Position numbers and translations under genes: made by a program. Positions 3-16,317 of a stretch of DNA of 19,125 nt are shown in pieces (position 1 is the first letter of the stretch; every line of letters begins with the position of its first letter). The stretch comes from Nitrospirota bacterium. GTDB lineage: Bacteria; Nitrospirota; UBA9217. The stretch spans positions 1 through 19,125 of the forward strand of contig DASPSR010000004.1 in assembly GCA_035623825.1 (NCBI GenBank). Reading direction: 5' to 3'. Under the pieces are notes generated by a model. It worked only from the letters and a program-made list of their open reading frames with translations. It had not been told where the DNA came from and ran no database searches.

Positions 3-521
3 TTTTTCTTTAACGGAGGAGGAGAATCCCCGTTTCCCCTCGAGGACCGTCTATTGATTCCTTCTCCCCGCGACGTCGCCACGTATGACAAAAAACCCGA
101 AATGAGCGCCCGGCAAATCACCGATTCGCTGGTCAAACACATCGAATCGGGACAATATGGGTTCGTGCTGGCGAACTATGCAAACCCCGACATGGTTGGC
201 CACACGGGTGTACTTGAGGCCGCCATCAAGGCCGTAGAGGTTCTAGATGAGTGCTTGGGCAGGGTGCTCAGAGCCGCACAGGAGGCAGGCGCCCACGTGA
301 TTATTACTGCGGATCACGGAAACCTCGAAATCATGTCAAATCCCTCGACTGGGCAGCCGCACACGGCTCATACAACCGACCCCGTTCCATTTATCTTGAT
401 CGGTAAGATGGTCAATCTGAGAAATGAAGGCCTTCTCGCCGATGTGGCGCCGACTGTTCTCGATCTCCTTGATATTGAGAAACCTGCGGAGATGACGGGG
501 AGCAGCTTGATCGTCAAGTGA
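3..521 (+). CDS. gpmI: 2,3-bisphosphoglycerate-independent phosphoglycerate mutase, C-terminal part (5' truncated by window edge)
   Basis: The frame is open from position 3: FFFNGG-E-PFP-EDR-LIPSP-VATYD-KPEMSA, then [19 protein letters not shown] and HTAHT. These are the metal-binding motifs of iPGM. Confidence 0.96.
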
Positions 522-540
522 TCGCTTGGAAAGGCGATCA
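519..540 (+). terminator. Hairpin at the gpmI stop codon (3'-protective or weak terminator)
   Basis: TGATCGCTT-GGAA-AGGCGATCA forms a 9-bp stem (1 G-U) with a GNRA loop. There is no immediate U-tract. Confidence 0.35.
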
Positions 541-711
541 GACCGGTTTCTTCTGGCAATTCTATCCAGATCATCAAAAACCTGATCGGAGTCCTTCTTC
601 CCACAGCCTGTTCTGCAAACTATTGCTGTCGGAGATCCGCACCCTTTTCAAATATTCGAAACGAGACTAAACTCGCAAAGAGTCGGCGTCCACGCCGGCA
701 GTGAAGGAATC

Positions 712-740
712 TTGACAAGTCATGATACCTTGGATATAGT
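712..740 (+). promoter_or_regulatory. Sigma70-type promoter upstream of the envelope cluster
   Basis: TTGACA (712-717), a 17-nt spacer, then TATAGT (735-740). Confidence 0.7.
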
Positions 741-960
741 TTGTACATGTTTTTCGCGGACCTATCCCCCTCCTAGTTAGGCCAGATATCCTTCGATGGT
801 GAATATTACCTTGACTTAAAAGTCTTTATATGAAATATTTAATATGATAACGAACCGCGGATGCGGGGGAAGGTGAATATCTGATACATCAATGAAAAAA
901 TTGCATTATTCACCGTTTTGCATTTATTATGATATTCAAAAACCGTGACTAAGGGGAGGT

Positions 961-1824
961 ATGAAAATGTTAGTGAGAAGAACAGCCTTTTTTGCAATCA
1001 TTATGGCAATCATCGTGTTTATCTCCGGCAGTGTCTTTGCGCAGCTGGTAGGCACGATTAAGGACGTCGTCGATCCCGTCGGCAGCACCGGAAAAGTGGA
1101 CTGGACCACAGGAGTGATCACCGCAGTCGGCATTGGCGCTCCTCCGGCTCAACCGGCGAATCCTGCCCAGGCACGCGCCATGGCCGAAAGGTCAGCGCAG
1201 GTAGTCGCGTACCGGAACCTTCTGGAAGCGGTCAAAGGTGTACGGGTGGATTCCACGACGACGGTCGAGAACTTCATCGTCACAAGCGATGTAATCAATA
1301 CGCAGGTGAATGGGATCATCCAGGGGGCCATGATCATGGACAAGAAATACATGTCTGACGGCTCTGTGGAGGTCACGGTGGGGATGAAGCTTACCGGCGC
1401 ATTGGCTGACGCGTTGCTCCCAAAGACACCTTTGACGCCTCCTGGAGGGCCGACCGGCGCGCTTGCACCGGGAACCCCGGGACAACTCTATACTGGGCTC
1501 ATCGTGGATGCGCGTGGCCTCGGTGTCAGGCCCGCAATGGCGCCCAGGATCCTGGATGAGGACGGCAAAGAGGTCTACGGTTCCGCCTGGATCAACAGAG
1601 ATTACGCCGTTCGGGAGGGCATGGTCGGTTATATGAAGGATCCCGCTGCCGCACAGGCAAATCCTCGTGTGACCGATAAGCCGCTCATGGTAAAGGCTCT
1701 CAAGGTTTCTGGCGACGCCAGGGTGGACACAGTGATAAGCAACGCCGATGCAACTATGCTGCACAATGCGTCCCAGAACCTGAATATGCTCGAAAAATGC
1801 AGGGTCATCATTCTGGTGGATTAG
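961..1824 (+). CDS. Exported LPP20-family domain protein (paralogue 1)
   Basis: Strong SD AAGGGGAGGT and a Sec signal ending VFA|Q with no lipobox. N-domain reads VDWTTG..AVGIG.PP..AQARAMAERSA...AYRNLLE.VKGVRVDS.T.V; C-domain reads YTGLIVDARG..RPAMAPRI.DE.G.EVYG...CRVIILVD. Confidence 0.8.
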   Translation: MKMLVRRTAFFAIIMAIIVFISGSVFAQLVGTIKDVVDPVGSTGKVDWTTGVITAVGIGAPPAQPANPAQARAMAERSAQVVAYRNLLEAVKGVRVDSTTTVENFIVTSDVINTQVNGIIQGAMIMDKKYMSDGSVEVTVGMKLTGALADALLPKTPLTPPGGPTGALAPGTPGQLYTGLIVDARGLGVRPAMAPRILDEDGKEVYGSAWINRDYAVREGMVGYMKDPAAAQANPRVTDKPLMVKALKVSGDARVDTVISNADATMLHNASQNLNMLEKCRVIILVD

Positions 1825-1927
1825 CGCTCCTTGCCGCAAGGGGAAAATCGCTCACTGTGTGCTTTCGCCATGAGCGGGCTACATCCCGGGATGATGTGAA
1901 CGGAGAAAACTCTTATGGAGGTTCGGA

Positions 1928-3082
1928 ATGATTACACAGCTTAAACGCCTCATGTTGATGGTGGCCGCAATCGCCGTCGTCGCTGTCGGCTGCGCCCCGA
2001 AAAGCGCTCCGCCGACTTCGGTCATGGACACGCCGGAATATCACTATAAGAACGGCCTCAAGTATCTGGACAACGACCAGATCGACGAGGCCATGAAGTC
2101 CTTCGATCGAGCGATCGCTCTCGCCCCCAAGTCCCCGCTTGGCTATATCGGCAAGGGCCTCGCTTTCGGCAAGAAGGGCGACTTCAAGGCGGCCTTCGAG
2201 AACATGGATAAGGCCAAAGGGTATGAAGAGAAGGGGATCGAATCCCGTATCGGTATGATACGTCTTTACAGCATGCAGAGGAGTAAGGACTGGATCAAGG
2301 ATGCCGAGAAGGAATTCAAGGCCGCCAGTGAGAAAGACCCGAATAACGCAGCGCTTTACTATTATATGGGGGAGGCTTATAAGGTCTCCTTCGACTTCGA
2401 CAAGGCAGCCGATATGTTCCATAAGGTCCTTGACCTGAATAAGGAGTTCACGGGCGAAGCCAATGCGGAATGGGCCGTAATCCAGAAGATACAGCGTGCA
2501 GCGCCGGGGACCGTCATCGGGAAGCAGATAGCGCTGATCGACAAGATCGACCGCGCCGATATATCCGCGCTGTTTGTCCAGGAAATGGACCTGGAAAAGC
2601 TGTATACGAAGCGCGGGCCAAAGACCTACGACACGACTTTCAAGGCGCCTGAGGAAACGACAACGGCATTCTCCCCCGAGAAGACGGTGAAGATGGAGCC
2701 TGCCACGGATATCGAGAACAACTGGCTTAAGCCGAGCATCGACACGGTGCTCAAGCTCCATGTACGGGGGCTCGAGGCCGGCCCGAATCATAAGTTCGAA
2801 CCCGACAAGCTGATAACCAGGGCAGAGTTTGCGCTCATGCTTGAGGATATCCTGATCAAGGTGTCCGGAGATGACAAGCTTGCCACGAAATATGTCGGCT
2901 CGCCGTCGCTCTTCCCCGATGTGCGGAGCGACTATTACGCATTCAACGCGATCATGGTCGTGACTTCACGGGGGTTCATCGAGGCCGATAAGGCTACAGG
3001 CGAGTTCAAACCGAACGACCCCGTGTCCGGAGCCGATGCGCTGCTTTCAATACGCGAGTTCAAGAACCAGTTAAAATTCTGA
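1928..3082 (+). CDS. Lipoprotein with N-terminal TPR repeats and C-terminal S-layer homology (SLH)-like repeats
   Basis: SD GGAGG and lipobox AVGC. TPR-like helices: YKNGLKYL..DQIDEAMKSFDRAIALAP and YYYMGEAY..FDKAADMFHKVLDL. SLH-like segments: TDIENNW..., FEPDKLITRAEFA, FPDV...YAFNAI and FKPNDPVSGADA. Confidence 0.82.
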   Translation: MITQLKRLMLMVAAIAVVAVGCAPKSAPPTSVMDTPEYHYKNGLKYLDNDQIDEAMKSFDRAIALAPKSPLGYIGKGLAFGKKGDFKAAFENMDKAKGYEEKGIESRIGMIRLYSMQRSKDWIKDAEKEFKAASEKDPNNAALYYYMGEAYKVSFDFDKAADMFHKVLDLNKEFTGEANAEWAVIQKIQRAAPGTVIGKQIALIDKIDRADISALFVQEMDLEKLYTKRGPKTYDTTFKAPEETTTAFSPEKTVKMEPATDIENNWLKPSIDTVLKLHVRGLEAGPNHKFEPDKLITRAEFALMLEDILIKVSGDDKLATKYVGSPSLFPDVRSDYYAFNAIMVVTSRGFIEADKATGEFKPNDPVSGADALLSIREFKNQLKF

Positions 3083-3097
3083 CCGTATGGTCCCGAT

Positions 3098-3128
3098 GCC
3101 CGCCCGCACCTCTGGGGCGGGCTTTTTT
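3098..3128 (+). terminator. Intrinsic terminator
   Basis: Perfect 8-bp GC stem GCCCGCCC (3098-3105) / GGGCGGGC (3115-3122), followed by TTTTTT. Confidence 0.8.
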
Positions 3129-3137
3129 GATGGAAAG

Positions 3138-4526
3138 ATGAACAAGCATGCATCCGCAGTGATCATTCTTTTGGGAATCTGCTTCCCGTGTATTGCCGGA
3201 GCAGAGCTGAAGATGCTCGACGGCGAGCACACCGTTACATATGACATCGTCAATCCCCGGGGTGTAGCCTTTATCCCCGATTATTCCAATGAATCATTCG
3301 TACAGCAGGTGATCAGCCAAGATGAATTCAGCAAGCGGGTGCGCGTGACCTCGAAGATGAATCCCATGAAAACCCGAGTCCCGTATCCTGTTCCTGCCGG
3401 TGCCATACCGCCGCCCGTTCTGCAGTACCTTGCCCCGGAACGTGACCGACAATCCAATGACCCTGCCATTGTGAGTCTTGCGAAGGATGTGACCCGCGGC
3501 AGCCGGTATGCACATGAGGCGGCGTATGCAATTCTTTCGTGGATCGCCGACAACTTGACCTTCGATACGAGCATCACGACCCCGGCCGACGCTCTCTCGG
3601 CCCTGAGGTTCAGAAAAGCGTATTGTGTAGGCTACTCCAATCTCGCCGTTGCGCTCCTCAGAGCGGCGGGCATCCCTGCGCGCGTTGCACACGGCTATCT
3701 ACCGCCGGGTTATGAGTGGGGTTTTTCAAAGGAGTATTGGGGAGTGAAGGTGAATGACGGCGGATTTCATGCCTATCTGGAAATATTCTACCCCGACACG
3801 GGATGGGTGTTTTCCGATGCCGAGCATTCGCATCATTTTGTAGACCCTTTTCATATAGTGCTCCGGCTCGACGGCGTTGAGATGCCTGGAGCGTACAAAG
3901 GAGGCTACCTCGAGGTCGACAAGGCGACATTCTATACCATCTTTCAGGAAGATGACAAGACCATGATGGTAGATGAGCTGCCGATGCCGAAAGAGAAACG
4001 GCTCGGCAGACGTTTGGACAATGTTCAGCATACAGCCTTAGTGACGGGCAGTGTGACCGACACAAAGGGCGCTTCAGTGCCAAAGGGGTCGGCGGTCTTG
4101 TGGAAAGACGGCATAGGGACCCCGTACCCATTCACTGACGGCCGTTATGCCGCGCCGCTGGAGATTTCCGGAAAATACCGCGTTGAACTCAAAGGCGCTG
4201 GCTTTGCCAAAGCGTCCCAGGAACTTCAGGCCGAACAGGGACGGGTGTACCGCCTGAATTTCACTCTCGAACCGGGCGGTGTTATCAAGGGAAGAGTAGT
4301 TGACTCCGGAGGCAGGCCCCTTGCGGATGGAGATGTTTTCTACCGGGACGAAAACGCCCGCTTCGGCGTGCCCATCGAAAAAGACGGGACATATAGGATA
4401 GAAGGCCTTGCGCCAGGCCAGTACAGGGTATCTGTCGTTTCGGGAGACAGGGAGGTCGCACGCACAGGGCAAGTGGAGGCGGGAAAAGAAACATCGCTTG
4501 ATTTTGTCGTTCCTGGTGTAAAATAA
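3138..4526 (+). CDS. Secreted transglutaminase-like (Cys-His-Asp) protein with two C-terminal carboxypeptidase-regulatory-like beta-sandwich domains
   Basis: The start is moved to ATG 3138 (signal MNKHASAVIILLGICFPCIAGA|E) because the ORF-track start 3087 runs through the terminator. Core motifs are AYCVGYSNLAVALLRAAGIPARV, FHAYLEIF and GWVFSDA. The C-terminal repeats read G.V.D..G...V/L...V...GRY/GTY...L..G.YRV. Confidence 0.85.
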   Translation: MNKHASAVIILLGICFPCIAGAELKMLDGEHTVTYDIVNPRGVAFIPDYSNESFVQQVISQDEFSKRVRVTSKMNPMKTRVPYPVPAGAIPPPVLQYLAPERDRQSNDPAIVSLAKDVTRGSRYAHEAAYAILSWIADNLTFDTSITTPADALSALRFRKAYCVGYSNLAVALLRAAGIPARVAHGYLPPGYEWGFSKEYWGVKVNDGGFHAYLEIFYPDTGWVFSDAEHSHHFVDPFHIVLRLDGVEMPGAYKGGYLEVDKATFYTIFQEDDKTMMVDELPMPKEKRLGRRLDNVQHTALVTGSVTDTKGASVPKGSAVLWKDGIGTPYPFTDGRYAAPLEISGKYRVELKGAGFAKASQELQAEQGRVYRLNFTLEPGGVIKGRVVDSGGRPLADGDVFYRDENARFGVPIEKDGTYRIEGLAPGQYRVSVVSGDREVARTGQVEAGKETSLDFVVPGVK

Positions 4527-4546
4527 TACAAAGAGCAATAAAGATC

Positions 4547-4575
4547 TTGAGGGTCTCCCGGACCTCAACTTTTTC
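4547..4575 (+). terminator. Possible intrinsic terminator or attenuator
   Basis: TTGAGG(G)TC-TCCCG-GACCTCAA forms a stem with a 1-nt bulge, followed by CTTTTTCTTTCTTTG. Confidence 0.5.
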
Positions 4576-4613
4576 TTTCTTTGCTTTTCATTGCATGATG
4601 GCCGAGGGCTCGA

Positions 4614-5699
4614 ATGAAAAAATACCTTTTTTATGCCTTTATCATTTCGTTCTATCTTCCGTATTGTGACTCAGTCTGGTCACAGACGGCCGGCTCAGGG
4701 GATGCCGTAGAGACCATGGCTTCCGGCACGATCAATTGGACAGTCGGAGAGGTGCGAGCGAGTGGCATCGGGGCTCCCCCGGCGTTTCCTGGAAGTGCGG
4801 CGCAAGCCCGAGCCATGGCTGAAAGGGCAGCATATGTCGTAGCGCTCAGAAACCTGCTCGAAACGGTCAAGGGAGTCCGAGTCGACTCTGAAACCGTGGT
4901 CGAGAATTATATTGTCAAGAACGACGTGATCAAGGCAAAGGTGGACGGAATCGTCAGGGGGGCCAGAATAGTGGACACGCGGTACATGTCTGACGGTTCG
5001 GTCGAAGTGCTTGTGGCAATGCCTATGAAAGGGGCTTTTTTAGACGCACTTGTCCCGGAATCATTCGGCAGACCGCCGGCTGGTCATGTTATCCAGAAAC
5101 CGGCACCCATCTCCCCGGCGCCTCTGCCAGCCATACCTCCCACGCCACCGGCCACGCCACCGGTAGCGCCTGAGAAAAAGATGGAGCCGGCGAAACCGGA
5201 ACCGATCATGCCTGCACCCCCTGCGCCCGAGACAAAAACAGAGCCCCTGAAGCCTTCCCCTCCGTCCCAGTTGCCGGAGAAAAAGATCGAACCGGCAAAA
5301 CCTGAACCTGTCCAGCCCGTTCCAGCGCCACAGGGTCAGGCCACGGTAGCGTTCAAAGGCGGCGTCGCAACCGGCCTTGTTATCGACGGAAGGGGGCTGG
5401 GCCTGCGGCCCGCGTTGTTGCCGAGAATCGTTGACCCCCAGGGCCAGGAGATCTACGTAGGGCAGGTCGTCACAAGAACGAATGCTGTCGAACAGGGTGT
5501 AGCCGGCTATGCGAAGGATGTGAACGCCGCAACGAACAATTTCCGTGTGACAGACAACCCGGCCGTTATCAAGGGGCTGAGCGCGTCCGGAGCGGCGAGA
5601 ACGGATGTCGTAATCGGTCAAGCCGATTCGCAGGTTCTCCGTCAAATGTCCGGGAAAGGAGATTTCCTTCAGTATTGCCGGGTCATTATCGTCTACTGA
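4614..5699 (+). CDS. Exported LPP20-family domain protein (paralogue 2) with a long Pro-rich linker
   Basis: Hydrophobic N-terminus. It has the same two domains as 961-1824 (INWTVG..ASGIGAPP..AQARAMAERAA..ALRNLLE.VKGVRVDS.T.VEN; YMSDGSVEV; TGLVIDGRGLGLRPA...CRVIIVY), separated by ~86 Pro-rich residues. Confidence 0.8.
   Translation: MKKYLFYAFIISFYLPYCDSVWSQTAGSGDAVETMASGTINWTVGEVRASGIGAPPAFPGSAAQARAMAERAAYVVALRNLLETVKGVRVDSETVVENYIVKNDVIKAKVDGIVRGARIVDTRYMSDGSVEVLVAMPMKGAFLDALVPESFGRPPAGHVIQKPAPISPAPLPAIPPTPPATPPVAPEKKMEPAKPEPIMPAPPAPETKTEPLKPSPPSQLPEKKIEPAKPEPVQPVPAPQGQATVAFKGGVATGLVIDGRGLGLRPALLPRIVDPQGQEIYVGQVVTRTNAVEQGVAGYAKDVNAATNNFRVTDNPAVIKGLSASGAARTDVVIGQADSQVLRQMSGKGDFLQYCRVIIVY
5172..5309 (+). 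repeat. Intragenic imperfect repeat (PEKKxEPAKPEP units)
   Basis: EKKMEPAKPEP (5172-5204) and EKKIEPAKPEP (5277-5309) are 105 nt apart, with a degenerate PETKTEPLKPSP between them. Confidence 0.7.
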
Positions 5700-5743
5700 G
5701 CCTTATGCCCTGATGCTCGCAGCGCCGCCTCTGGCATTGAAGC

Positions 5744-5773
5744 TTGACATGAATGGTGCGTTTGTGATAGGTA
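5744..5773 (+). promoter_or_regulatory. Possible internal sigma70 promoter
   Basis: Perfect TTGACA at 5744-5749. The -10 region is only a partial match (TGTGATAGGTAT). Confidence 0.4.
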
Positions 5774-5858
5774 TTCACATAGTGACGATCTTATTGTGAT
5801 CGCTATCCGTATGGCAGCGTCAAGGCCGCTATTTTTTTAGGTTTTCCGGAGCATCCAA

Positions 5859-7235
5859 GTGTCAAGGACCACCTTATGGTTTTTCACAGCGCTTTTTGTC
5901 TTCAGTCTGCTCGCCGGATGCGCGCCGCCGCGACAAGTGCCGCGATATTATGATGCCGCTAACCCCCTTAAGCGGGTTGCCGTCCTGCCGATGAAAAATG
6001 ACACCTTGGACGTCGAAGGCCCGAATATTGTGAGAAAGAAAATAGTTGCAGCGTTAGTGAACAAATCCTATAACGTAGTAGACATCAACGAATCTGACCA
6101 GGTGCTCCGCGATCGAATGGGAATCAACCTCGGCGGACAACTGGATATGACCACACCGCAGAAACTCGGCGAGGTGCTGGGCGTTGACGGAGTTCTATAC
6201 GGGACACTAATGGATTTCGATGAAACAACGACGGGAGTGATCGACGTGAAAAAGGTCAGGGCAAAATTCAAGCTCGTGAACACATTGACCGGCCAGGCGG
6301 TGTGGGAAGGGGGACTCGGGGTGCGATCGGAAGTGAGGATGTCGGGGACATCGGGAGACATTGCAGTCGTTGCCTCTCGACTGTCAGATGCCAAGGAAAA
6401 AGATGTTCCCTGGGTCACCATCGGGAGCACTGTCACCAATGAGCAGAACGTCGCGCGTTCCCTGGCGTTTGGCCTTGGTGCCGAGCTTTTTTCCAAGGCA
6501 GCGGGCATCCATCTTGGCTATGAATCAACGGAACTCGTACGAAGGGTCACGAATAACCTGCCTTGGGGGCCGGGCCCGAGTGCCCTGGCCACCGTACCTC
6601 AGCTGAAAGAATTGATTTCGAATATCAAGATGCCCGAACCCCCTTCGTTCAGCTACATGGATTGGGAAGGAAAGATGGATTTTTCTGCAGTTGTCATCTC
6701 CACGTCACTTGACAAGGTCACAAATGAGTCTATCAACATGGAGATCCCGATTGCGATTGCCGGTAACAATATGCGTATGGACATGGACATGTCCAGGATG
6801 ATGAAGGGAGACGCGCAGTCTCCATTCAGCAAGATGGTCCTTATCGAACAGGGAGACAAGAAGGCAGGCTACACGCTCTACACCAATTCGAAGCGTTACA
6901 TTGTTCGGAGGGAAACGGCAGGGGCCGGCGAAAGACCTCAGGTCGAGAAGACGAAAGTGGGCAGTGAGATGATCGGCAAACGTCAGACGGACAAGTTCAA
7001 GGTAAAGATCATCTATAAAAGCGGGAGGGTTGAGGAAGGATTCATCTGGAACGCCAGAAACCTCAATGGCATGACCATCAAGAGCGAAATGGAGAGCAAG
7101 GATTACAAAGTCACCACCGAGCTCAGAGACATCACCCTGGAGACGCCCAATGAATCACTTTTTGTGATACCGTCCGGATATACGGAGGCGAAGAGTTTCA
7201 CGGATCTGATGACGACAGAGCCGAAGAACAAATAA
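5859..7235 (+). CDS. Lipoprotein: DUF799/GNA1162-like (CsgG/LpoB/TolB-N fold) domain fused to a DUF4412-like domain
   Basis: GTG start with SD GGAG and lipobox LAGC. N-domain reads RVAVLPMKN...PQKLGEVLGVDGVLYGTL..F...KLVNTLTGQAVWEG. C-domain reads FSA....MRMDM...YTL...KRY...KVGSEMIG..TDKFKV...IW...LRDI...PNESLFVIPSGY. Confidence 0.72.
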   Translation: MSRTTLWFFTALFVFSLLAGCAPPRQVPRYYDAANPLKRVAVLPMKNDTLDVEGPNIVRKKIVAALVNKSYNVVDINESDQVLRDRMGINLGGQLDMTTPQKLGEVLGVDGVLYGTLMDFDETTTGVIDVKKVRAKFKLVNTLTGQAVWEGGLGVRSEVRMSGTSGDIAVVASRLSDAKEKDVPWVTIGSTVTNEQNVARSLAFGLGAELFSKAAGIHLGYESTELVRRVTNNLPWGPGPSALATVPQLKELISNIKMPEPPSFSYMDWEGKMDFSAVVISTSLDKVTNESINMEIPIAIAGNNMRMDMDMSRMMKGDAQSPFSKMVLIEQGDKKAGYTLYTNSKRYIVRRETAGAGERPQVEKTKVGSEMIGKRQTDKFKVKIIYKSGRVEEGFIWNARNLNGMTIKSEMESKDYKVTTELRDITLETPNESLFVIPSGYTEAKSFTDLMTTEPKNK

Positions 7236-7271
7236 CGAGCGAATTCAAGCCATTACCAAGGAGGAGCCAGG

Positions 7272-8246
7272 ATGAGAAAGAGCATGCGGTTAATGTTAGC
7301 AGGGATCGCTGTCGGCACGGCTGCACTCATTGCAAGCAGCTGCGGGCCCACGACGTCCGGAGCGGTCAGGAATGACACGACCTTGACCGGCACTTCGGAG
7401 CAGCTCAAGACGACCAGCGACGTATCGGGATACAAGGGCCCCAAACTGCGGGTCGGCGTCGTTAACTTCCAGAATAAGACCCCTTCACGTGTGCTCGGGA
7501 TCGGCGAGGCAGCGGCTGATATCCTAGGTACTATCCTTCAGAAGACCGACCGGTTCATCGTCGTCCCGCAGCAGGACATGGAGTCCATCCTTTCGCAGCA
7601 GCGCATGGGCGCGACAGGAGTGATAAATCCTGACACTGCTGCCGAAATGGGAAAAGTCATGGGACTGAACGCGATCGTGACCGGCGCAGTGACTGCCTAT
7701 TCTGAAACGGAAGAAGGGTCAGACTACCTCGTGGCCAAAAGCAAGAAGCAGATAGCGCGGGTCACGGTGGATTACCGGATCGTCGACACTACCACTGGCG
7801 TGCAGCTGATGGCGGACTCCGGGGCCGGCATCTATTCCAAGTCAGAAAGCAGGGTTCTCGGGATGGGATCCAATGCAGGCTACGATCCCGACCTTCGGGA
7901 CGGCGCCCTTCGAGACGCCTTGACAAAGGCAATGGTCAACATGATGCAAAAGCTAGGCACCAAGAAGTGGAATGGTCGAGTCGCCCAGGTCGATGGCGGA
8001 AACCTGTATATCAATGCAGGCCAGAGATCCGGTCTCAACGTCGGAGACAAACTCAAAGTATTCAGACCGGGTAAGGACATCATCGATCCTGAGACCAAGA
8101 TGAAGCTTGGAACGACAGAAAACCTGATTGGCGAGGCGATCGTGCAGCAGAATGACATCGGCGACCAGGCCGATGTATCCATAGCGGTTCCGACATCGGG
8201 AACCGGTTTTAAGTCTGGAGATATCGTTAAACTGAGCGGGAAGTAG
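7272..8246 (+). CDS. CsgG/HfaB-family lipoprotein with a FlgT C-terminal-like domain
   Basis: SD AAGGAGG and lipobox-like ASSC. CsgG-like core: RVGVVNFQN...TDRFIVV..QDMESILSQQ.MG.TG.I...AAEMGK.MG.NAIVTGAVT and VDYRIVDTTTG. C-terminus: GRVAQVDGGNLYINAG..SGL.VGDKL.V.R.G..IIDPET. Confidence 0.8.
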   Translation: MRKSMRLMLAGIAVGTAALIASSCGPTTSGAVRNDTTLTGTSEQLKTTSDVSGYKGPKLRVGVVNFQNKTPSRVLGIGEAAADILGTILQKTDRFIVVPQQDMESILSQQRMGATGVINPDTAAEMGKVMGLNAIVTGAVTAYSETEEGSDYLVAKSKKQIARVTVDYRIVDTTTGVQLMADSGAGIYSKSESRVLGMGSNAGYDPDLRDGALRDALTKAMVNMMQKLGTKKWNGRVAQVDGGNLYINAGQRSGLNVGDKLKVFRPGKDIIDPETKMKLGTTENLIGEAIVQQNDIGDQADVSIAVPTSGTGFKSGDIVKLSGK

Positions 8247-8291
8247 ACTGCCTGCGGCTTGCGGTAAGGAAGCGGACGAAAAGGTAAACTT

Positions 8292-9059
8292 ATGAGGAAG
8301 CACTATCCCTATTATACTGCTGCACTGATCATGACATTGTTGTCATTCCTGATCGCGGCTGCGGCAGAAAGACCCGGGGCAGGTACGGAAGCGGTCGTAA
8401 CCATGATCGATGGGACCGCCCAAGTCTTCACGCGGGGAGTACCTGCCGGTCTTCCGCTCGAGAAAGGGAGCAAGCTGAAGAGAGGACAAGAGGTCAGGGT
8501 AGGAGCCAATTCAAGGATGGAGATCCGTTTTCCCGATGGCACTATTATGAGGCTATCGGAAAAAACCCGCCTCACCATGGATGAGGTGCTGTACGATAAA
8601 AATACCGAGAGCAAAAACGTCAAGGTCAACCTCGCGATAGGAAAACTCTGGGCAAACGTGAAAAAGCTGACGACCCCGGATTCCAAAGTCGAGGTCAGAA
8701 CGAGCAATGCCGTCGCCGGCGTACGGGGAACCGTGTACCGGGTGAACGTGGAAGAAGATAAAAGCGCCCTCGTAAAGGTTTATGATGGGTCGGTATACGT
8801 GGCGAACCCGCCGAAAGATGGGTCAGGGAAACCGCCAAGGGAGGTGTCCGCCCCCGTTCCCGTTCCCGGGCCGCATGAGGTGCCTGCTCCGTATCACGAA
8901 GTGACCTTGGAAGAGTGGTACGTGATCGTGAAATCCTTCCAGCAGGTCACCATATCGCCGGAAGGTGTAGCGTCGCAACCGCAGGATTTCGATCCCCAGG
9001 CGGATGCCGATGAATGGGTGAAGTGGAACCGGGAGAGGGACAAACAAGTACAGTTCTAA
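8292..9059 (+). CDS. Exported FecR-domain protein (no cytoplasmic anti-sigma domain)
   Basis: N-terminal signal ending AAA|E. FecR core: L..G..VRVG.NSR.EI.F.DGT.MRL...T.L, V.T.NAVAGVRGTVY.V and VKVYDGSVYV. C-terminus: DEWVKWNRERD. Confidence 0.82.
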   Translation: MRKHYPYYTAALIMTLLSFLIAAAAERPGAGTEAVVTMIDGTAQVFTRGVPAGLPLEKGSKLKRGQEVRVGANSRMEIRFPDGTIMRLSEKTRLTMDEVLYDKNTESKNVKVNLAIGKLWANVKKLTTPDSKVEVRTSNAVAGVRGTVYRVNVEEDKSALVKVYDGSVYVANPPKDGSGKPPREVSAPVPVPGPHEVPAPYHEVTLEEWYVIVKSFQQVTISPEGVASQPQDFDPQADADEWVKWNRERDKQVQF

Positions 9060-9094
9060 ATAGTTACATGTTCTCAAAACGTCTTCAAGACAGC

Positions 9095-9134
9095 AAAGGC
9101 CGCTCCGACAGACCGGAACGGCCTTTCATTTTTT
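9095..9134 (+). terminator. Intrinsic terminator closing the envelope cluster
   Basis: AAAGGCCGCTCCG (9095-9107) / CGGAACGGCCTTT (9114-9126) pair at 12 of 13 positions, followed by CATTTTTT. Confidence 0.8.
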
Positions 9135-9152
9135 AAAAAACAATAAAAACAC

Positions 9153-9181
9153 TTGACTCGAGAACCGCAACATGGTATAAA
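9153..9181 (+). promoter_or_regulatory. Sigma70 promoter of the fur operon
   Basis: TTGACT (9153-9158), a 17-nt spacer, then TATAAA (9176-9181) with an extended -10 TG. Confidence 0.75.
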
Positions 9182-9208
9182 TGATATTGAAAATGGTTTT
9201 CAATATCA
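9182..9208. promoter_or_regulatory. Fur box (autoregulatory operator)
   Basis: Perfect 12-3-12 inverted repeat TGATATTGAAAA-TGG-TTTTCAATATCA over the predicted transcription start. It resembles the TGAAAATnATTTTCA-type Fur box of deltaproteobacteria and lies directly upstream of fur. Confidence 0.85.
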
Positions 9209-9213
9209 AGGTC

Positions 9214-9654
9214 ATGAAGAGAAACGCATCAAAACAGCTTGCTGAATATCTTGCGGATCAGGGGCTCAAGTCAACAAGTCAGCGAGACACCATTTTGCAT
9301 ATATTCGTGGATGCGGGCCGGCACCTGAGCGCAGAGGAGCTTTATGCCCGTGTGAAGAAATCGCATCCGGGCATCGGCTATGCAACGGTGTATCGTACAT
9401 TGAAGCTTCTGGCAGAGGCCGGTTTGGCCGAGGAATGTCGGTTCGAAGATGGTTTTACTCGATATGAGTACAAGGCCACCGACGGTCATCACGACCATCT
9501 CATCTGCACTAAATGCGGTCAGATAATAGAGTTTGAGAACGAGCGGATAGAGGAGCTCCAACAGGATGTGGCCAGAAAAAACCGGTTCAGGGTCCAGAGC
9601 CACAAGCTTGAACTCTACGGATTGTGCAGTGATTGTCAGGAAAAGCTGAAATAG
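9214..9654 (+). CDS. fur: Ferric uptake regulator
   Basis: Motifs GLKSTSQR, HLSAEELY, IGYATVYRTLKLL, HHDHLICTKCG and C-terminal CSDC. ATG 9214 is preferred because ATG 9181 overlaps the -10 box and operator. Confidence 0.93.
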   Translation: MKRNASKQLAEYLADQGLKSTSQRDTILHIFVDAGRHLSAEELYARVKKSHPGIGYATVYRTLKLLAEAGLAEECRFEDGFTRYEYKATDGHHDHLICTKCGQIIEFENERIEELQQDVARKNRFRVQSHKLELYGLCSDCQEKLK

Positions 9655-9714
9655 ACGCGAGAGATCAAATGGCAGAAGACGGATTCACAGTTCAAGACAG
9701 AGAGAGGGAATTTC

Positions 9715-11697
9715 ATGCATCATCATGATGGTTCAGATGTCGCCGATCGGCATGGAGATCTGAACAAGGTTCTTTTGATTGGGAACCCGAATGTGGGGAA
9801 AAGCGCGCTTTTTGGGCTCCTTACCGGCAAATACGTGACCGTATCCAATTATCCCGGCACCACGGTTGAAGTGACCTATGGGAACGCAGTATTGAACAAG
9901 ACACGTTCCCTTGTGATCGATACACCCGGAGTAAACAGCCTGGTTCCCATGTCCGAAGATGAAAAAGTAACCAGAGACATATTGCTCACTGACAAAGCTG
10001 GCGTGGTGGTTCAGGTCGCCGATACCAAGAACCTGCGGCGCGGCCTTCTCATCACGCTGCAGCTTGCCGAGATGGGGGTTCCGTTCATCCTCGACCTTAA
10101 CATGGATGACGAGGCAAAGAGCCGCGGCATCGTGATCGACCAAGAGAAACTCTCTCAGTTACTTGGCATCGAGGTGGTCAAGACCGTGGCAATCCGGCGG
10201 AGTGGTATCGATCGGCTTTTGAAAGGCATTCAGCATCCACGGCCGTCCGTCATCGATGTACAGTATGACGGCGCAATCGAGGGCGGGATAAGAGACATAT
10301 CGGCTCTGTTGCCTGACGCAAACATCTCGCGGCGGGCGCTCGCGCTCATGGTCCTCGCCGGTGACGAGAGCCTCAGGGGATGGCTCCATGCGAATCTGCA
10401 GGACCATGTGATAGGGGAGATCGAAAAATTCAGGCAGGACGCGCAGTCGAAATTCAACAATTCGCTCGGCTATGTCATCAATCAGCGCAGGCTCAAAAGG
10501 GCTGATGAAATACTCGCACAGGTGCTGAGTCTCCACGAGGCTGGAAAAGGCTCTTCAATTGCGTTTCATATCGGCAGGTGGTCCATGCACCCGGTCTACG
10601 GCCTGCCGATCCTCCTTGCCGTTCTCTATGCCGTTTACCAGTTCGTAGGCGTGCTGGGAGCAGGAACGACGGTCAATTTTCTGGAGAAAACGATGTTCGG
10701 AGAATATTTGAACCCCTGGACGACAAAGATCGTTAATTATGTGCTGCCCGTTCCTTTCCTCCAGGAACTCATTGTCGGAGACTACGGCCTGGTTACCATG
10801 GCGCTCACCTATGCCATTGCCATCGTTCTGCCGATCGTCGGGTTCTTCTTTATCGCTTTTAGCCTCCTGGAAGACTCTGGCTATCTGCCGCGGCTCGCTG
10901 TCATGGTGAACAAGGTTTTCAAGATCATGGGACTCAACGGCAAGGCAGTGCTGCCCATGATCCTCGGTCTCGGATGCGACACCATGGCGACCCTCACTAC
11001 GCGCATTCTGGAGACGAAGAAAGAAAGGATCCTGGTAACTTTCCTCCTTGCGCTCGGGGTGCCCTGTTCAGCCCAGCTCGGCGTTGTCCTCGGCCTCATT
11101 GCCGGGCTTTCCGGTCTGGCGACGGCCATCTGGCTTGGCACTATGGTGGCCGTAATGTTGTTCGTAGGTTATCTTGCGGCAAAAGTCATTCCTGGAGAAC
11201 CCTCGGACTTTGTTCTCGAGTTGCCGCCTATACGAGTGCCGCAGCTCACGAATATTCTGATCAAGACCCTTGCCCGTGTGCAATGGTATCTGAAAGAGGC
11301 GGTACCACTTTTCATACTCGGCACCTTCATTCTCTTTGTCGGACACAAGGTAGGGGCGCTCGAGTATATCCAGCGGCTTGCCGACCCGCTCGTTGTCGGG
11401 ATGCTGGGCCTTCCCAGCAAGGCAGCAGAGGCGTTCGTCATCGGTTTTTTACGCCGAGATTACGGGGCCGCCGGCCTCTTCATGCTTGCCAAGGAGGGAA
11501 TGCTCGATCCCGTCCAGATCGTAGTGAGCCTCACCGTGATGACTCTGTTCGTGCCGTGCATAGCGAACTTTTTTGTGATGGTGAAGGAGCGAGGATTAAA
11601 GGCCGCCCTGTACATGGCGGCGTTTATCTTTCCCTTTGCTTTCGGCGTGGGGGGATTACTGAACTGGGTGCTCAGGTCCTTTGCGATATCATTGTAA
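9715..11697 (+). CDS. feoB: Ferrous iron transporter B
   Basis: GTPase motifs GNPNVGKS, VSNYPGTTVE, DTPG and LNMDD. Membrane domain motifs LEDSGYLPR, LGLGC, VPCSAQ, FVLELPP and FVPCIA. Confidence 0.95.
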   Translation: MHHHDGSDVADRHGDLNKVLLIGNPNVGKSALFGLLTGKYVTVSNYPGTTVEVTYGNAVLNKTRSLVIDTPGVNSLVPMSEDEKVTRDILLTDKAGVVVQVADTKNLRRGLLITLQLAEMGVPFILDLNMDDEAKSRGIVIDQEKLSQLLGIEVVKTVAIRRSGIDRLLKGIQHPRPSVIDVQYDGAIEGGIRDISALLPDANISRRALALMVLAGDESLRGWLHANLQDHVIGEIEKFRQDAQSKFNNSLGYVINQRRLKRADEILAQVLSLHEAGKGSSIAFHIGRWSMHPVYGLPILLAVLYAVYQFVGVLGAGTTVNFLEKTMFGEYLNPWTTKIVNYVLPVPFLQELIVGDYGLVTMALTYAIAIVLPIVGFFFIAFSLLEDSGYLPRLAVMVNKVFKIMGLNGKAVLPMILGLGCDTMATLTTRILETKKERILVTFLLALGVPCSAQLGVVLGLIAGLSGLATAIWLGTMVAVMLFVGYLAAKVIPGEPSDFVLELPPIRVPQLTNILIKTLARVQWYLKEAVPLFILGTFILFVGHKVGALEYIQRLADPLVVGMLGLPSKAAEAFVIGFLRRDYGAAGLFMLAKEGMLDPVQIVVSLTVMTLFVPCIANFFVMVKERGLKAALYMAAFIFPFAFGVGGLLNWVLRSFAISL

Positions 11698-11764
11698 GAC
11701 GCTGGTCACGAAGCATCCGACGTGAGAGGGAAGGAAAGAAGATAATCGATAAAAGGAGAAAGCC

Positions 11765-12472
11765 ATGTCTGAAAGAATAAAATCTCGCGGAGGCGAGGGG
11801 CAGGCGGGTCATCCTGCGCTCTGCGTATTGCCCGAGATAGAGAAAGAAGATGAAATCTTCGAGAGCATTTGGACGCTGAGGGAAGAGGGGAAGCTCACGC
11901 GGGACCAGATCCTAGAGAGCTGTCAGATAGAAGGCTGCGAAGATACCCTGAAAGTACTTGCCAAGAATGGATGGATAGACATCAAAGGCCAAGCCGTTGA
12001 GCTTCTCCCGAAGGGAGAGAAAAGGGCTCGGGAATTGGTGCGACGACACCGACTCTCGCTTCGCTTATTTCATGATCTTTTCAGCCTGGACGGTGCCGAG
12101 GCGGAAGCTTGCAAGTTCGAGCACATCCTTTCACCGGAGGTGACGGACAGCGTCTGCACCTTGCTCGGCCATCCGCCCAATTCGCCTGACGGCAAGTCGA
12201 TCCCGCGCGGGGAATGCTGCACAATGTTCCGGCAGGAGATGAAGCCGCTCGTAGCGCCGCTTGCCGATCTTATGCCGGGAGAGCAGGCAAAGATCGTCTT
12301 TATCACGCCGGGCTCGCATTCACGCCTTGATCGCCTCTCGGCAATGGGTGTGGTTCCCGGCAGTGTTGTCAAGCTCCATCAGAAAAGGCCATCGTATGTT
12401 ATTCAACTTGGAGAGACGACGATCGCCGTCGACAAGGACATAACGAAAGAGATATTTGTCAAAAAAGTATGA
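11765..12472 (+). CDS. DtxR/IdeR-family metalloprotein with C-terminal FeoA domain
   Basis: SD AAAGGAG. DtxR dimerisation domain: L.P.G...A..LVRRHRL, EACKFEH and LGHP..SPDGK.IP. FeoA SH3-like domain: LADLMPGEQAKIV...RLSAMGVVPGSVV. Confidence 0.85.
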   Translation: MSERIKSRGGEGQAGHPALCVLPEIEKEDEIFESIWTLREEGKLTRDQILESCQIEGCEDTLKVLAKNGWIDIKGQAVELLPKGEKRARELVRRHRLSLRLFHDLFSLDGAEAEACKFEHILSPEVTDSVCTLLGHPPNSPDGKSIPRGECCTMFRQEMKPLVAPLADLMPGEQAKIVFITPGSHSRLDRLSAMGVVPGSVVKLHQKRPSYVIQLGETTIAVDKDITKEIFVKKV

Positions 12473-12572: not shown

Positions 12573-12602
12573 TTGACAGGAGCGCATGTATTTGGTTAAT
12601 AT
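12573..12602 (+). promoter_or_regulatory. Possible sigma70 promoter of the DUF4388 gene
   Basis: TTGACA (12573-12578), an 18-nt spacer, then TAATAT (12597-12602). Confidence 0.5.
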
Positions 12603-12609
12603 AACGACG

Positions 12610-13140
12610 ATGCGCTGCGAATCCCTGTCATTTAATTTTCAAGATGTCCTCCTTCTTGTCGGGCTTAAGGGCTGCACCGGAGAACTTACGATAGAGTCCG
12701 GTAACAACATCGGCCATATGCTTTTTCACAGAGGGAGAATTTTACAGGCGATGTCTCCGTATTCACGCGCTGTCGGCGATCTCCTCGTGGAGAAAGGACT
12801 CATTGCCGAGATGGAGCTCATCGAAGCGCTGAAACTTCAAAAGAAGAATCCTATATCGCCAATAGGCGCGCAGCTCCTCAAAACAGGCAAGGTCTCTTTC
12901 GAGGTTGTTGAGATAATGGTTCTTGACCAGATCAGGCAGGCAGTAAAAGAGTTTAAAACGTGGGAGAATGTTAGCCTCAGCTTTCAGGAAAAAGACATTC
13001 AGCCGTTCGACAGAATCAATCTGGCAGTTCATGAATTCCTGGATCAGGAAACCCTCAAGAGCGCCATTCAATTCCTCTCGACGCGGTCCGCTCCGCACGA
13101 TCACTCCACGACCGCGGCTCCTTCGCCGAAAAAGTCCTAA
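12610..13140 (+). CDS. DUF4388 (PATAN-like) domain protein with degenerate MshEN-like repeats
   Basis: F.FQDVLLLV...CTGELTI......MLF.RGRI..A, then RAVGDLLVEKGLI....LIEALKLQ, IGAQLL..G.V and QIRQAV.EF..W....SF. The start is uncertain (ATG 12586 or 12610). Confidence 0.75.
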   Translation: MRCESLSFNFQDVLLLVGLKGCTGELTIESGNNIGHMLFHRGRILQAMSPYSRAVGDLLVEKGLIAEMELIEALKLQKKNPISPIGAQLLKTGKVSFEVVEIMVLDQIRQAVKEFKTWENVSLSFQEKDIQPFDRINLAVHEFLDQETLKSAIQFLSTRSAPHDHSTTAAPSPKKS

Positions 13141-13157: not shown

Positions 13158-13700
13158 TTATCTGTGCAGCGCTATTCGCAGTATCTCCCTGGCCCTGTTG
13201 AACATATCCAAGGATTCATTTGTCCGGAAATCCGGATAGGTATGTTCAAGCGACAGGAACGTCTTCATGCGGGTCGCGTAGCGAAGCGTTACTTCGGCAT
13301 AGATACCTGATCCCAGATAAACACGATGAGAATAATCCTTCGTGGACGCCAGAACGACCTTGGCCTCGGTGACATACCCGGGATCGAGGTTGATGCGGCG
13401 GCGTGCAGCGTTCCCGCTGGCGGCCGAATAACGCGTTTCGATGCTGTTCGTGAGAAGTTTCGTGTTCGCGAGAACGGCGGGATCAACCAACCGATCAAAA
13501 AAAACGAACTTACGTAGAATGCCGGTCCCCATCTCATCTTGATAATAATCCGTCGCTCTCCACTGCTGAATTTCGCTGTAGTAATCAATGAGACCATATT
13601 CTGCACTGAGAAGTCCGGCGCAGATATCGAACAATTCGATTTCGGGCGAAAGCATGCCTACGAACAGCTTCACCGGTGAAGGTATTCTCGGTTCTCCCAT
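13158..13700 (-). CDS. DUF4416-family protein
   Basis: MG.P..P.PVKLF.G, TDYY..EMG..I.RKF..F, K..TN.IE, RR.NLDPGY....VVLASTK.YSHRVYL..GIYAEVTL.Y and YPDF. Start placed at ATG 13700. Confidence 0.82.
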   Translation of the reverse strand: MGEPRIPSPVKLFVGMLSPEIELFDICAGLLSAEYGLIDYYSEIQQWRATDYYQDEMGTGILRKFVFFDRLVDPAVLANTKLLTNSIETRYSAASGNAARRRINLDPGYVTEAKVVLASTKDYSHRVYLGSGIYAEVTLRYATRMKTFLSLEHTYPDFRTNESLDMFNRAREILRIALHR

Positions 13701-13720
13701 AGTTCCCCAGAGCGAGCAGG

Positions 13721-14626
13721 TCAATCGGTAATATATCGGGATAAGCCGTCAGGGCCGGTGAGTGAAAGTTCCAGTTCGATCTCGACCGTCCCGTCACTCA
13801 GTTCGCGTTCAGCCGTAACCCGGTATCCCTGAAGAAATCCATGTATCTTCTGAGCATATTTTGTGTCGCCCAAAAACGCTTTCAGGTTTTCGTTGGGACC
13901 TGTCTTGATCTGCTCTATGATCTTCAGCAGGTTCCTCTGGGCGTCGGCAAGTGCAGCGCGTTTCGCCATTTCCCTGCGGGCAATCGCATTTGCGGTAGGG
14001 GGAGGTAAGCCTGTGCCTGTTGCGCGGATTATTCCCGTGGTCCAGTCCACACCATATACGGTTGAAACGTAGAGGAGCCTGATATTTTGTGTAGTTCTTG
14101 CGCTTTCGGCGATATTAACCTCGACGGCATCGCGCGCGTAGTCGGCTGCACTCACCTGTATGGTATATCTTCCTTCGGAGAGGCCGGTAAACTCATAGCT
14201 TCCATCGGCGGCGGCATTCGCCGAGGCCAGTTCCGATCCCTCATGCAGAATGGTCACTCTAATCCCGGTTCCGCCAGGTGAAATCCGTCCTGAGAGAATA
14301 GCGTTACCTGAATGCTGGGAAAGCTCGATGCGCGGGATGACGGTTGTTTTACCCGCTTCCACCGCGATGCCGGGGAAGGTCATGGGAAAAGGCGCGGAAG
14401 CCATGGTCACGCTGATGTCGTATGTTCCGGGCGGGAGCACCATTCTAAACTTGCCGTCTTCCACCTTCGCCCCAGCGGTCATAATGGTCCTGCCGTTCTG
14501 CGCTGCAGTAATTCGGGTTCTCGCATTCGGTGGTATGACCGTCCCCTCGACCGCTCCCTCCTTTTTTTCGCTGCAGGCTGAGAGCACGAACAGTACAATG
14601 TAAAGGATAATTTTAGAGAAACGCAT
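13721..14626 (-). CDS. Lipoprotein: two carboxypeptidase-regulatory-like domains plus a C-terminal LPP20-like domain
   Basis: Start MRFSKII with lipobox LSAC and a purine-rich SD (AGGAAAGG). The repeats read G.V.P...DGKF.M.LPPGTYDISV and SGRISP...DGSYEFTGLSEGRYTIQV. The C-domain reads VDWTTGIIRATGTGLPP...ARREMAKRAALADAQRNLL...SDGTVEI. Confidence 0.8.
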   Translation of the reverse strand: MRFSKIILYIVLFVLSACSEKKEGAVEGTVIPPNARTRITAAQNGRTIMTAGAKVEDGKFRMVLPPGTYDISVTMASAPFPMTFPGIAVEAGKTTVIPRIELSQHSGNAILSGRISPGGTGIRVTILHEGSELASANAAADGSYEFTGLSEGRYTIQVSAADYARDAVEVNIAESARTTQNIRLLYVSTVYGVDWTTGIIRATGTGLPPPTANAIARREMAKRAALADAQRNLLKIIEQIKTGPNENLKAFLGDTKYAQKIHGFLQGYRVTAERELSDGTVEIELELSLTGPDGLSRYITD

Positions 14627-14648
14627 AGGCCTTTCCTGAATTTTCACT

Positions 14649-14676
14649 ATTATACCACAAAAAATGTTCAATCCAA
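14649..14676 (-). promoter_or_regulatory. Sigma70 extended -10 promoter for the minus-strand gene pair
   Basis: The minus strand reads TTGGAT, a 16-nt spacer, then TATAAT, with TGTGG immediately before the -10. Confidence 0.7.
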
Positions 14677-16299: not shown

Positions 16300-16317
16300 C
16301 GCGGAGATCTGAAGAAC

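Follow-up and report, generated by a model that had tools for sequence, protein, structure and literature searches.

A conserved pair of exported D1-D2 and TPR-SLH proteins within a seven-gene Nitrospirota cluster: a tentative cell-envelope scaffold

What do seven exported proteins build together, when their folds recall the accessory rings of the flagellar motor and no flagellar gene stands beside them? This question is raised by a cluster of seven genes (g1 to g7) from a Nitrospirota bacterium (assembly GCA_035623825.1, contig DASPSR010000004.1). The window, by which the whole analysed stretch of 19,125 nt is meant, is part of contig C1 in a genome of 3.24 Mb that is 89.65% complete, and the G+C content of the cluster is about 54%. 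A reading of the letters alone, called here the sequence-only reading, had seen in the cluster a cell-envelope system of FlgO-, FlgP- and FlgT-like folds. The present analysis revealed the homology of g1 and g4 to the D1-D2 tandem unit of Tp0624 from Treponema pallidum. It further showed that g1 travels across phyla with g2, a lipoprotein of TPR and SLH repeats, and that the cluster is independent of flagella. This suggests that the proteins form a scaffold which lies beneath the outer membrane, is coupled to the cell wall and has no flagellar role, a reading whose chance of being right we put slightly below even.

Seven co-directional open reading frames (ORFs) fill positions 961-9059 of the + strand, just where the sequence-only reading had placed seven consecutive genes. 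It had also predicted a signal peptide on every product and a lipobox cysteine on three of them. Both hold, since all seven products have one hydrophobic N-terminal segment, with no later 19-residue stretch above a Kyte-Doolittle mean of 1.4, and the cysteine is found in g2 (VAVGC), g5 (LLAGC) and g6 (IASSC). For g1 the signal is of the signal peptidase I type (VFA/Q, no Cys), and for g4 a non-canonical LPYC is present. Each of the proposed domains was reproduced by Pfam, LPP20 in g1 and FlgT_C in g6 below the cut-off, and no family of ATPases, polytopic membrane proteins or classical barrels is among the Pfam matches of the cluster.

For g1 and g4, the closest solved relative is Tp0624, a kinship that is new relative to the sequence-only reading. 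The Pfam family LPP20 is matched by g1 with 25.3 bits, just below the cut-off of 25.9, and by g4 with 28.6 bits. A g1 profile (A1) of 42 aligned rows, which was also the basis of an AlphaFold2 (AF2) model with a predicted local distance difference test score (pLDDT) of 91.7, matched the Tp0624 structure 5JIR in the PDB with an E-value (E) of 9e-21 over profile positions 39-283, thus over both domains. The model itself was matched to 5JIR by Foldseek (E 1.5e-15), and VIA superimposed its residues 42-287 on residues 67-318 of the 5JIR chain (Z 23.3, root-mean-square deviation 2.7 Å, 237 residues, 25% identity). Here, the next match was Lpp20 with a Z of 7.8. Because matches to D1 took up the whole of the wide VIA search with the g1 model, it is uninformative on other relatives of D2.

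No OmpA match was found by Pfam in g1 or g4, and the last domain of g1 is D2, which closes at residue 287. Since a third, OmpA-like domain is lacking, g1 belongs to the proteins that consist of D1 and D2 only, about 50 of which are reported outside the treponemes in the Tp0624 paper (PMC5104382). In the same paper, D1 and D2 are described as always co-occurring and the D2 fold as one without analogues (PMC5104382). At E <= 1e-3, a search with g1 gave 4,871 representative clusters, of which 701 remain at E <= 1e-30. Five longer proteins, obtained in a search for fused forms of g1, carry no informative Pfam domain, and Pfam on 16 long representatives gave mostly tandem LPP20, besides one weak FlgT_N, one trypsin-like and one Hint domain. 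The fusion search thus yielded no Rosetta-stone link for g1 other than Tp0624.

The relation between D1 and FlgP, claimed by the sequence-only reading for LPP20-type domains, is borne out at the level of profiles. D1 of g1 aligns with Campylobacter jejuni FlgP (9hmf_C) with E 1.1e-15, ungapped over FlgP residues 69-161, and with Vibrio-type FlgP with E from 4.4e-7 (8z5n_2) to 1.9e-5. Judged from these alignments, D1 is a homologue of this flagellar disk/H-ring protein. The paralogue g4 shares 53% identity with g1 over g1 residues 6-165 and 45% over residues 156-285. At residues about 150-240 it carries a Pro-rich linker of ~90 residues with repeated E-K/T-K-x-E-P-x-K-P-x-P motifs, of which g1 has none; in the DNA of this linker, Tandem Repeats Finder gave just one 12-nt repeat of two copies (5140-5163).

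The second member of the pair, g2, matches TPR_2 with 50.1 bits and SLH with 40.9 bits (cut-off 20.8) in two stretches, and a possible third SLH-like motif, IDRADISALF, was noticed by eye upstream of these. The lipobox is kept in 78 of the 78 g2 orthologues listed, and its cysteine is invariant among 40 orthologues from several phyla. A complex prediction of mature g2 (residues 23-384) with mature g1 (29-287) scored 0.00 in two runs without controls and counts neither way.

How far the gene set is conserved was followed in 36 genomes of the family and in 24 genomes of the phylum outside it. In the family, g1 is present at 72-88% identity in 35 of the 36 genomes and full-length g2 in 27; three more g2 genes are truncated at the end of a contig, and one is a remnant. 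Of the genomes outside the family, only two (G039 and G048) have full-length g1, and the same two have full-length g2; two further genomes gave weak matches to D1 only. Fourteen family regions were chosen for their long contigs, one of which (G028) ends at a contig end. All seven genes stand in the order of the window in 10 of these 14 regions, two of them with a short g5. Mean identities over the family loci, for which a few genomes were counted twice and the locus sets overlap, are 77.7% for g1, 75.9% for g6, 74.3% for g2, 71.7% for g3, 62.8% for g4, 61.4% for g5 and 60.9% for g7.

Beyond the family, an 11-row g1 alignment (A2) led to 594 confirmed loci in species-representative genomes. The best 80 of these include Desulfobacterota (Syntrophales, Desulfobacterales, Smithellaceae), Deferribacteres, Bryobacterales and others. 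Neighbours were counted at the 59 loci with g1 below 70% identity, each count being restricted to loci with sufficient flank. Here, 44 of 50 loci have g2 downstream of g1 at a distance of up to 9 kb, and in 30 of 50 the two are directly adjacent. A GNA1162-like N-domain is encoded upstream of g1 in 19 of 42 loci, and g7 lies within 5 kb in 16 of 39, whereas g4 (2/35), g6 (2/29) and g3 (0/42) are nearly or entirely missing near g1. These counts define the unit found across phyla as g1 and g2, often joined by g7 and a GNA1162-like lipoprotein, and g3, g4 and g6 appear, from the sequences compared, to be additions of one Nitrospirota family. A conserved gene order, which the sequence-only reading had proposed to look for, stands within the family, and what persists beyond it is the core of g1 and g2 in place of the seven-gene set. 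In two other Nitrospirota families (L014 and L015), CsgG-like, TPR-SLH and D1-D2 genes occur together in a different order, in L014 along with transglutaminase-like and GNA1162-like genes.

The independence from flagella was evident on three levels. Family searches of the window proteins found no flagellar gene, as had been claimed for the vicinity of the cluster. In the 89.65%-complete genome of the window, the positive controls were detected and no match to FlgI, FHIPEP or Flagellin_N was found. Finally, FHIPEP (FlhA) was matched in 8 of the 36 family genomes versus 35 for g1, so that 27 of the 35 g1 carriers, many of them more than 95% complete, have no FHIPEP match, and the flagellated members retain the cluster as well. 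The case that the sequence-only reading had named as its own refutation, a displaced H-ring operon, was rejected because the cluster does not track flagella.

The homology of D1 to FlgP and the FlgT-like fold of g6 would fit a displaced flagellar H-ring or basal-disk operon nonetheless, and the gene neighbourhood would fit a related proposal, an iron-signalling unit tied to fur and feoB via the FecR domain of g7. The genes fur, feoB and a DtxR-C/FeoA fusion gene directly follow the cluster (9181-12472, + strand), and this position is kept throughout the family. Among the distant loci, however, fur/feoB-like matches near g1 are seen in L075 only, and in the window fur is set apart from g7 by a hairpin and its T-run. 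The FecR domain of g7 (67.8 bits, residues 67-168) lies directly behind the N-terminal signal peptide. A role as a FecR-type anti-sigma regulator was rejected, since g7 has no anti-sigma N-domain and no extracytoplasmic function (ECF) sigma factor or TonB-dependent receptor gene was found nearby; likewise, no functional link between the fur/feoB neighbours and g7 was found. Taken with the flagellar counts above, this leaves the flagellar or iron-related explanation next to no chance.

How could such a set of proteins work? The scaffold reading is favoured because all seven products are exported, because the linkage of g1 and g2 crosses phyla, and because Tp0624 fuses D1-D2 to a domain of the wall-binding type, here represented by SLH on the adjacent gene. 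A further reason is that FlgP, FlgT, FlgO, PelC, CsgG and TsaP form rings at the outer membrane. From these data we infer the localisation, the contacts, the ring or lattice form, the SLH ligand and the physiological role as follows. The lipoproteins g2, g5 and g6 would be anchored in the outer membrane, with g1 as a soluble periplasmic D1-D2 protein that forms the evolutionary core pair with g2. The D1-D2 proteins g1 and g4 would be the main building blocks. In g2, the TPR half may hold protein partners and the SLH repeats the cell wall, so that the scaffold would be tied to peptidoglycan via g2 and would couple or space outer membrane and wall. In the Nitrospirota family, g3 to g7 would extend this core, with g3 cross-linking or trimming a protein or wall-peptide component. 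Such a scaffold would serve the cell body in a way analogous to the lipidated FlgT/FlgP/FlgO H-ring around the Vibrio motor and to the role proposed for Tp0624.

Several observations weigh against this scaffold. Ring formation in the FlgP family is accompanied by a hairpin insert, according to a study on this family (PMC12222027); the corresponding region of g1 is similar in sequence, yet helical in the monomer AF2 model with a pLDDT above 95. Furthermore, g1 and g4 are without the lipid anchor that is present in FlgP, and the AF2 model of g6 reaches medium confidence only (pLDDT 66.6). Not all relatives have the complete cluster: G012 is without g5 and g6, G014 is without g3, g4 and g7 and has a g2 remnant, and in G035 and L031 g1 alone is kept. 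Therefore, an obligate complex of all seven proteins is not the case. Among the Syntrophales, some loci have unrelated housekeeping genes (HDOD, mutL, miaA) between g1 and g2. With respect to the wall, g2 is the sole SLH locus of the genome, in which eight OmpA-domain loci exist, so that an extra tether is not obviously needed. The family of CsaB (PS_pyruv_trans, PF04230), the pyruvyl transferase by which the classical SLH ligand is made, gave no match in the window's genome at its 89.65% completeness and was found in 5 of the 36 family genomes; as these genomes are incomplete, this means not found rather than absent. The SLH ligand of g2 may be peptidoglycan itself or something else. In Selenomonas, SLH domains reportedly bind to polyamine-modified peptidoglycan.

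A last point against the scaffold is that two secretin genes are present in the genome (C43:17506-18009 and C13:230330-230803). These would suit an accessory ring of a trans-envelope machine whose genes lie outside the cluster, for instance a type IV pilus or a type II secretin, with g2 as a pilotin like PilF, PilW or Tgl and g6 as a peripheral ring like TsaP or FlgT. For the TPR region of g2, NCBIfam gave PilW (4.3e-9) and Tgl (8.7e-7), both far below their cut-offs, and the C-domain of g6 matches TsaP (6ve2_O E 3.3e-11; 3jc8_Ta E 3.5e-9). However, the TPR matches are generic, g6 has no TsaP LysM domain, both secretin genes lie on contigs away from the cluster, and the core of g1 and g2 has no known pilus counterpart, which makes this explanation rather unlikely.

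To the lipoprotein g6, Pfam assigned CsgG with 81.2 bits (cut-off 20.8) and FlgT_C with 23.2 bits, under the cut-off of 27. The AF2 model, calculated from a 20-row alignment, is matched best by the M and C domains of FlgT (8z5n_0 E 3.5e-16, query TM-score (TMq) 0.60, 283 columns; 3w1e E 9.7e-16), which upholds the FlgT-like fold proposed by the sequence-only reading. CsgG (4uv2) followed with E 1.2e-10 and TMq 0.36, then GNA1162, PelC and TolB-N. Against the PDB, the g6 profile (A4) placed TsaP on the C-domain and CsgG on the N-domain (E 6.8e-7). These relatives were found by profile and fold searches alone, as phmmer with the g6 sequence gave neither CsgG nor FlgT in the PDB. FlgT_N has no Pfam match in g6, whose residues 22-55 form a low-confidence coil in the model.

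A channel of the CsgG type, exporting g1, g4 or another substrate to the surface, would fit the Pfam score, the lipobox and the annotation of g6 orthologues as CsgG/HfaB family. Nevertheless, the g6 orthologues are without the Gly-rich insert of 20-24 residues that is seen in distant CsgG-like homologues (L014, L026, L036, L084), and the profile alignment spans 126 residues of g6 versus 144 of CsgG. The site of this insert is presumably the first membrane hairpin of CsgG. Since the insert is absent from the orthologues, a CsgG-type barrel is unlikely for g6, which by its model is closer to FlgT than to CsgG and in which the membrane-hairpin insert appears to be missing. Furthermore, the Pfam matches of the window proteins include no csgA/B/E/F-like genes, and g1 is well folded, globular and highly conserved in the family, unlike a subunit of a surface fibre. 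The pore that the sequence-only reading had entertained is thus unlikely for g6, and the export channel as a whole is highly improbable.

For g5, Pfam gave GNA1162-like with 50.3 bits, LpoB with 23.8 bits (cut-off 22.3) and DUF4412 with 25.2 bits, and the profile A6 matched GNA1162 (4HRV) in the PDB with E 4.3e-8. The Atlas cluster of g5 likewise combines GNA1162-like with DUF4412. As an LpoB equivalog g5 was rejected, because TIGR02722 reached 24.3 bits versus a cut-off of 110.55 and the GNA1162-like match is stronger. This bears on another explanation, in which the cluster would regulate enzymes that synthesise or hydrolyse peptidoglycan. Here, g5 would span the wall in the manner of LpoB and activate a penicillin-binding protein (PBP), the other proteins being adaptors. 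The Pfam score of LpoB and a transglutaminase-like enzyme that could act on wall peptides speak for it, as does a SpoIID-type wall-cleaving enzyme near g1 in seven distant loci. The fit of g5 to GNA1162, the lack of a PBP gene in the window and the loss of g5 in several relatives that retain g1 to g4 and g7 speak against it and render it very unlikely.

The transglutaminase-like enzyme is g3, for which Pfam gave Transglut_core with 81.4 bits and CarboxypepD_reg with 64.8 bits, and the nearest solved sequences are 6G49 (E 1.3e-5) and 3ISR (E 3.4e-4). All 15 of the orthologues that were aligned retain C180, H228 and D244; partly by their position in the 6G49 alignment, we take these residues to be the catalytic triad. 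More likely than a start at 3087 is a start at 3138, since the orthologues begin there and no Shine-Dalgarno-like sequence lies upstream of 3087. For g7, NCBIfam gave partial matches to LipL45 and Lsa33 (69.8 and 69.4 bits versus cut-offs of 350 and 420).

Outside the family, the gene directly upstream of g1 often encodes a lipoprotein of ~900 residues that begins with the GNA1162-like domain and contains a right-handed beta-helix. Examples with NosD/Beta_helix and 759-919 residues are L074 7141-9900, L095 7233-9938, L042 11393-13999 and L014 13941-16220, the last also with TPR repeats, and most such lipoproteins, from Desulfobacterota and from other Nitrospirota, have a D1-D2 gene as neighbour. 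A second recurring neighbour is a protein of TPR and SpoIID, found near g1 and mostly directly upstream of it in seven loci; in L078 (8168-9742) this gene of the wall-cleaving type directly precedes the g1 homologue, with relatives in six further loci.

These neighbours lead to the question whether a glycan is handled. In a platform for processing or exporting wall glycan or exopolysaccharide, a PelC/CsgG-like ring of g6 and g5 would guide the polymer together with g2. The polymer would be bound by SLH and modified by g3 as well as by enzymes specific to each lineage. The right-handed beta-helix is a fold typical of carbohydrate-active proteins, and its fusion to the GNA1162-like domain beside g1, the TPR-SpoIID protein and the matches of the g6 model to the PelBC transporter and PelC (9h80_A E 5.7e-7; 5t0z_C E 2.5e-6) agree with such a platform. 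On the contrary, the window contains no gene for a glycosyltransferase, polymerase, flippase, porin or OPX protein, DUF4412 replaces the beta-helix in the Nitrospirota family, and no carbohydrate-related domain is matched by g1, although it is the member with the highest conservation. The glycan platform therefore keeps a small but real chance.

The features of the locus are collected in Table 1. Upstream of g1, a gap of 440 nt follows a truncated metalloenzyme-superfamily gene (3-521). Between the genes from g1 to g7, the gaps measure 103, 4, 87, 159, 36 and 45 nt. The scan that gave the promoter-like site listed 11 sigma-70-like sites versus 7.3 +/- 2.8 in shuffles, so that it is overall not enriched. 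Downstream of g7, CATTTTTT lies directly 3' of the GC-rich hairpin at ~9095-9126; RNAfold gave -21.7 kcal/mol for 9060-9150 (91 nt), and the consensus terminator scan did not list this hairpin. Rfam found no match at gathering score in the entire window. Contigs from two metatranscriptome libraries overlap parts of g1 (both libraries), g2, g4, g5 and g6 with 0-2 mismatches, a weak hint at transcription of these pieces, because DNA may be present in such libraries; that g3 and g7 are without cover carries no meaning.

Table 1. Positions of the genes and putative signals of the cluster in the window, with the possibly associated gene g13
Feature	Position	Strand	Description	Remark
Promoter-like site	712-740	+	TTGACA-17-TATAGT	11/12 matches; best site in 400-9800; in the gap 5' of g1
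g1	961-1824	+	Sec-exported, no lipobox; D1 LPP20/FlgP-like and D2 of Tp0624-D2 fold	
g2	1928-3082	+	Lipoprotein; TPR repeats N-terminal, SLH repeats C-terminal	
g3	3087-4526	+	Exported Cys-His-Asp enzyme of the transglutaminase type; two beta-sandwich domains (CarboxypepD_reg)	Probable start 3138
g4	4614-5699	+	g1 paralogue; D1 and D2 split by Pro-rich linker	
g5	5859-7235	+	Lipoprotein; GNA1162-like/LpoB-like N-domain and DUF4412 C-domain	GTG start
g6	7272-8246	+	Lipoprotein; CsgG-N/FlgT-M-like domain and FlgT-C/TsaP-like C-domain	
g7	8292-9059	+	Exported FecR-domain protein without anti-sigma N-terminal domain	
Likely intrinsic terminator	9095-9134	+	GC-rich hairpin (about 9095-9126) and T-run	Before fur
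g13	13721-14671	-	Lipoprotein; D1 only (third LPP20/FlgP-like protein of the window), two CarboxypepD_reg domains	Possibly associated, outside the operon

Outside the putative operon, g13 shares 35% identity with g1 residues 43-147 and matches CarboxypepD_reg with 54.4 bits, and relatives of it lie near the cluster in L005, L007, L013 and L020. It is adjoined by a DUF4416 gene (13158-13724, - strand) and a DUF4388 gene (12586-13140, + strand), the product of the latter with a sub-threshold match to an MshE-type motif for binding cyclic di-GMP; several relatives have this trio as well, at a distance of 7-9 kb from the cluster. The remainder of the window (14762-19125) carries genes for an Rrf2 regulator, a menaquinone enzyme of the MqnA type (VitK2_biosynth), a cation diffusion facilitator (CDF) transporter, an NAD-dependent epimerase and, open-ended at the end, a class I/II aminotransferase.

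The folds and families found here are already known, and the gene set and the partnership of g1 and g2 are not described in the literature searched. In this search, outside of which most subscription journals fall, no paper was found on the gene set or on a TPR-SLH lipoprotein as partner of LPP20/Tp0624-type proteins, which agrees with the statement of the sequence-only reading that no characterised system has this gene set. The D1-D2 family is large, with at least 594 stretches in species-representative genomes, and Tp0624, of known structure, is its sole studied member. That g1 and g2 travel together gives a testable hypothesis for both, namely coupling of outer membrane and wall, with non-pathogenic anaerobes as hosts. 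The pair further bears on how general envelope proteins gave rise to the accessory rings of flagella (FlgP, FlgT), and on the targets of SLH domains in Gracilicutes-type diderms where CsaB is not found.

A bolder generalisation would see in the D1-D2 and TPR-SLH pair, with its FlgT-like and GNA1162-like partners, a widespread class of cell-body envelope skeleton that forms a lattice or arcs below the outer membrane, is coupled to the wall via a CsaB-independent SLH ligand, and draws on the fold families of the flagellar basal disk and H-ring as their free-standing relative. We consider this extension speculative and unlikely. If true, such a skeleton would be the source from which the parts of the motor rings were recruited, or the reverse.

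Known systems resemble the scaffold proposed here in parts. FlgT, FlgP and FlgO form lipid-anchored rings under the outer membrane, as stated in a preprint (bioRxiv 10.64898/2025.12.02.691832). With the FlgP disk of Campylobacter and the FlgT/FlgP/FlgO H-ring of Vibrio, the cluster shares the FlgP-related D1 of g1 and the FlgT M and C fold of g6. In contrast, g1 and g4 are unlipidated and have an extra D2, g6 is lipidated and without a FlgT_N match, and the genome gave no flagellar genes.

PelC, CsgG and TsaP are ring-forming proteins at the outer membrane as well. Here, g6 shares a CsgG-family N-domain on a lipoprotein, and both g5 and g6 fall into the fold class of GNA1162, PelC and TolB-N; the differences are the apparently missing membrane-hairpin insert of g6 and the lack of curli or Pel partner genes. 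For TsaP, the secretin-associated ring of type IV pili, the likeness is its repeated beta-domain, matched by the g6 C-domain, and g6 differs from it by being without LysM, lipidated and not encoded near a secretin gene. The N-domain of g5 resembles GNA1162 of Neisseria meningitidis, to which g5 adds DUF4412, and g7 resembles in part the FecR lipoproteins of the LipL45 type from Leptospira, far below the family cut-offs.

On the side of the wall, OmpM and SlpA of Deinococcus and Thermus are described as SLH connectors between outer membrane and wall (PMC9388160). As in these, SLH on a protein attached to the outer membrane could link membrane and wall in g2. Unlike them, g2 would be attached by a lipid anchor and TPR rather than by a beta-barrel, the lineage is Nitrospirota/Desulfobacterota, and CsaB is matched in few of the family genomes.

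The nearest comparison is Tp0624. Its D1-D2 unit is fused to an OmpA-like domain, and the protein has been proposed to play a part in positioning peptidoglycan or stabilising the envelope (PMC5104382). The same order of D1 and D2 is found in g1 and g4, and all are exported envelope proteins. In Tp0624, however, the third, divergent OmpA-like domain belongs to the same chain, whereas g1 and g4 are without it and the wall-binding-type SLH domain is carried by the neighbouring g2.

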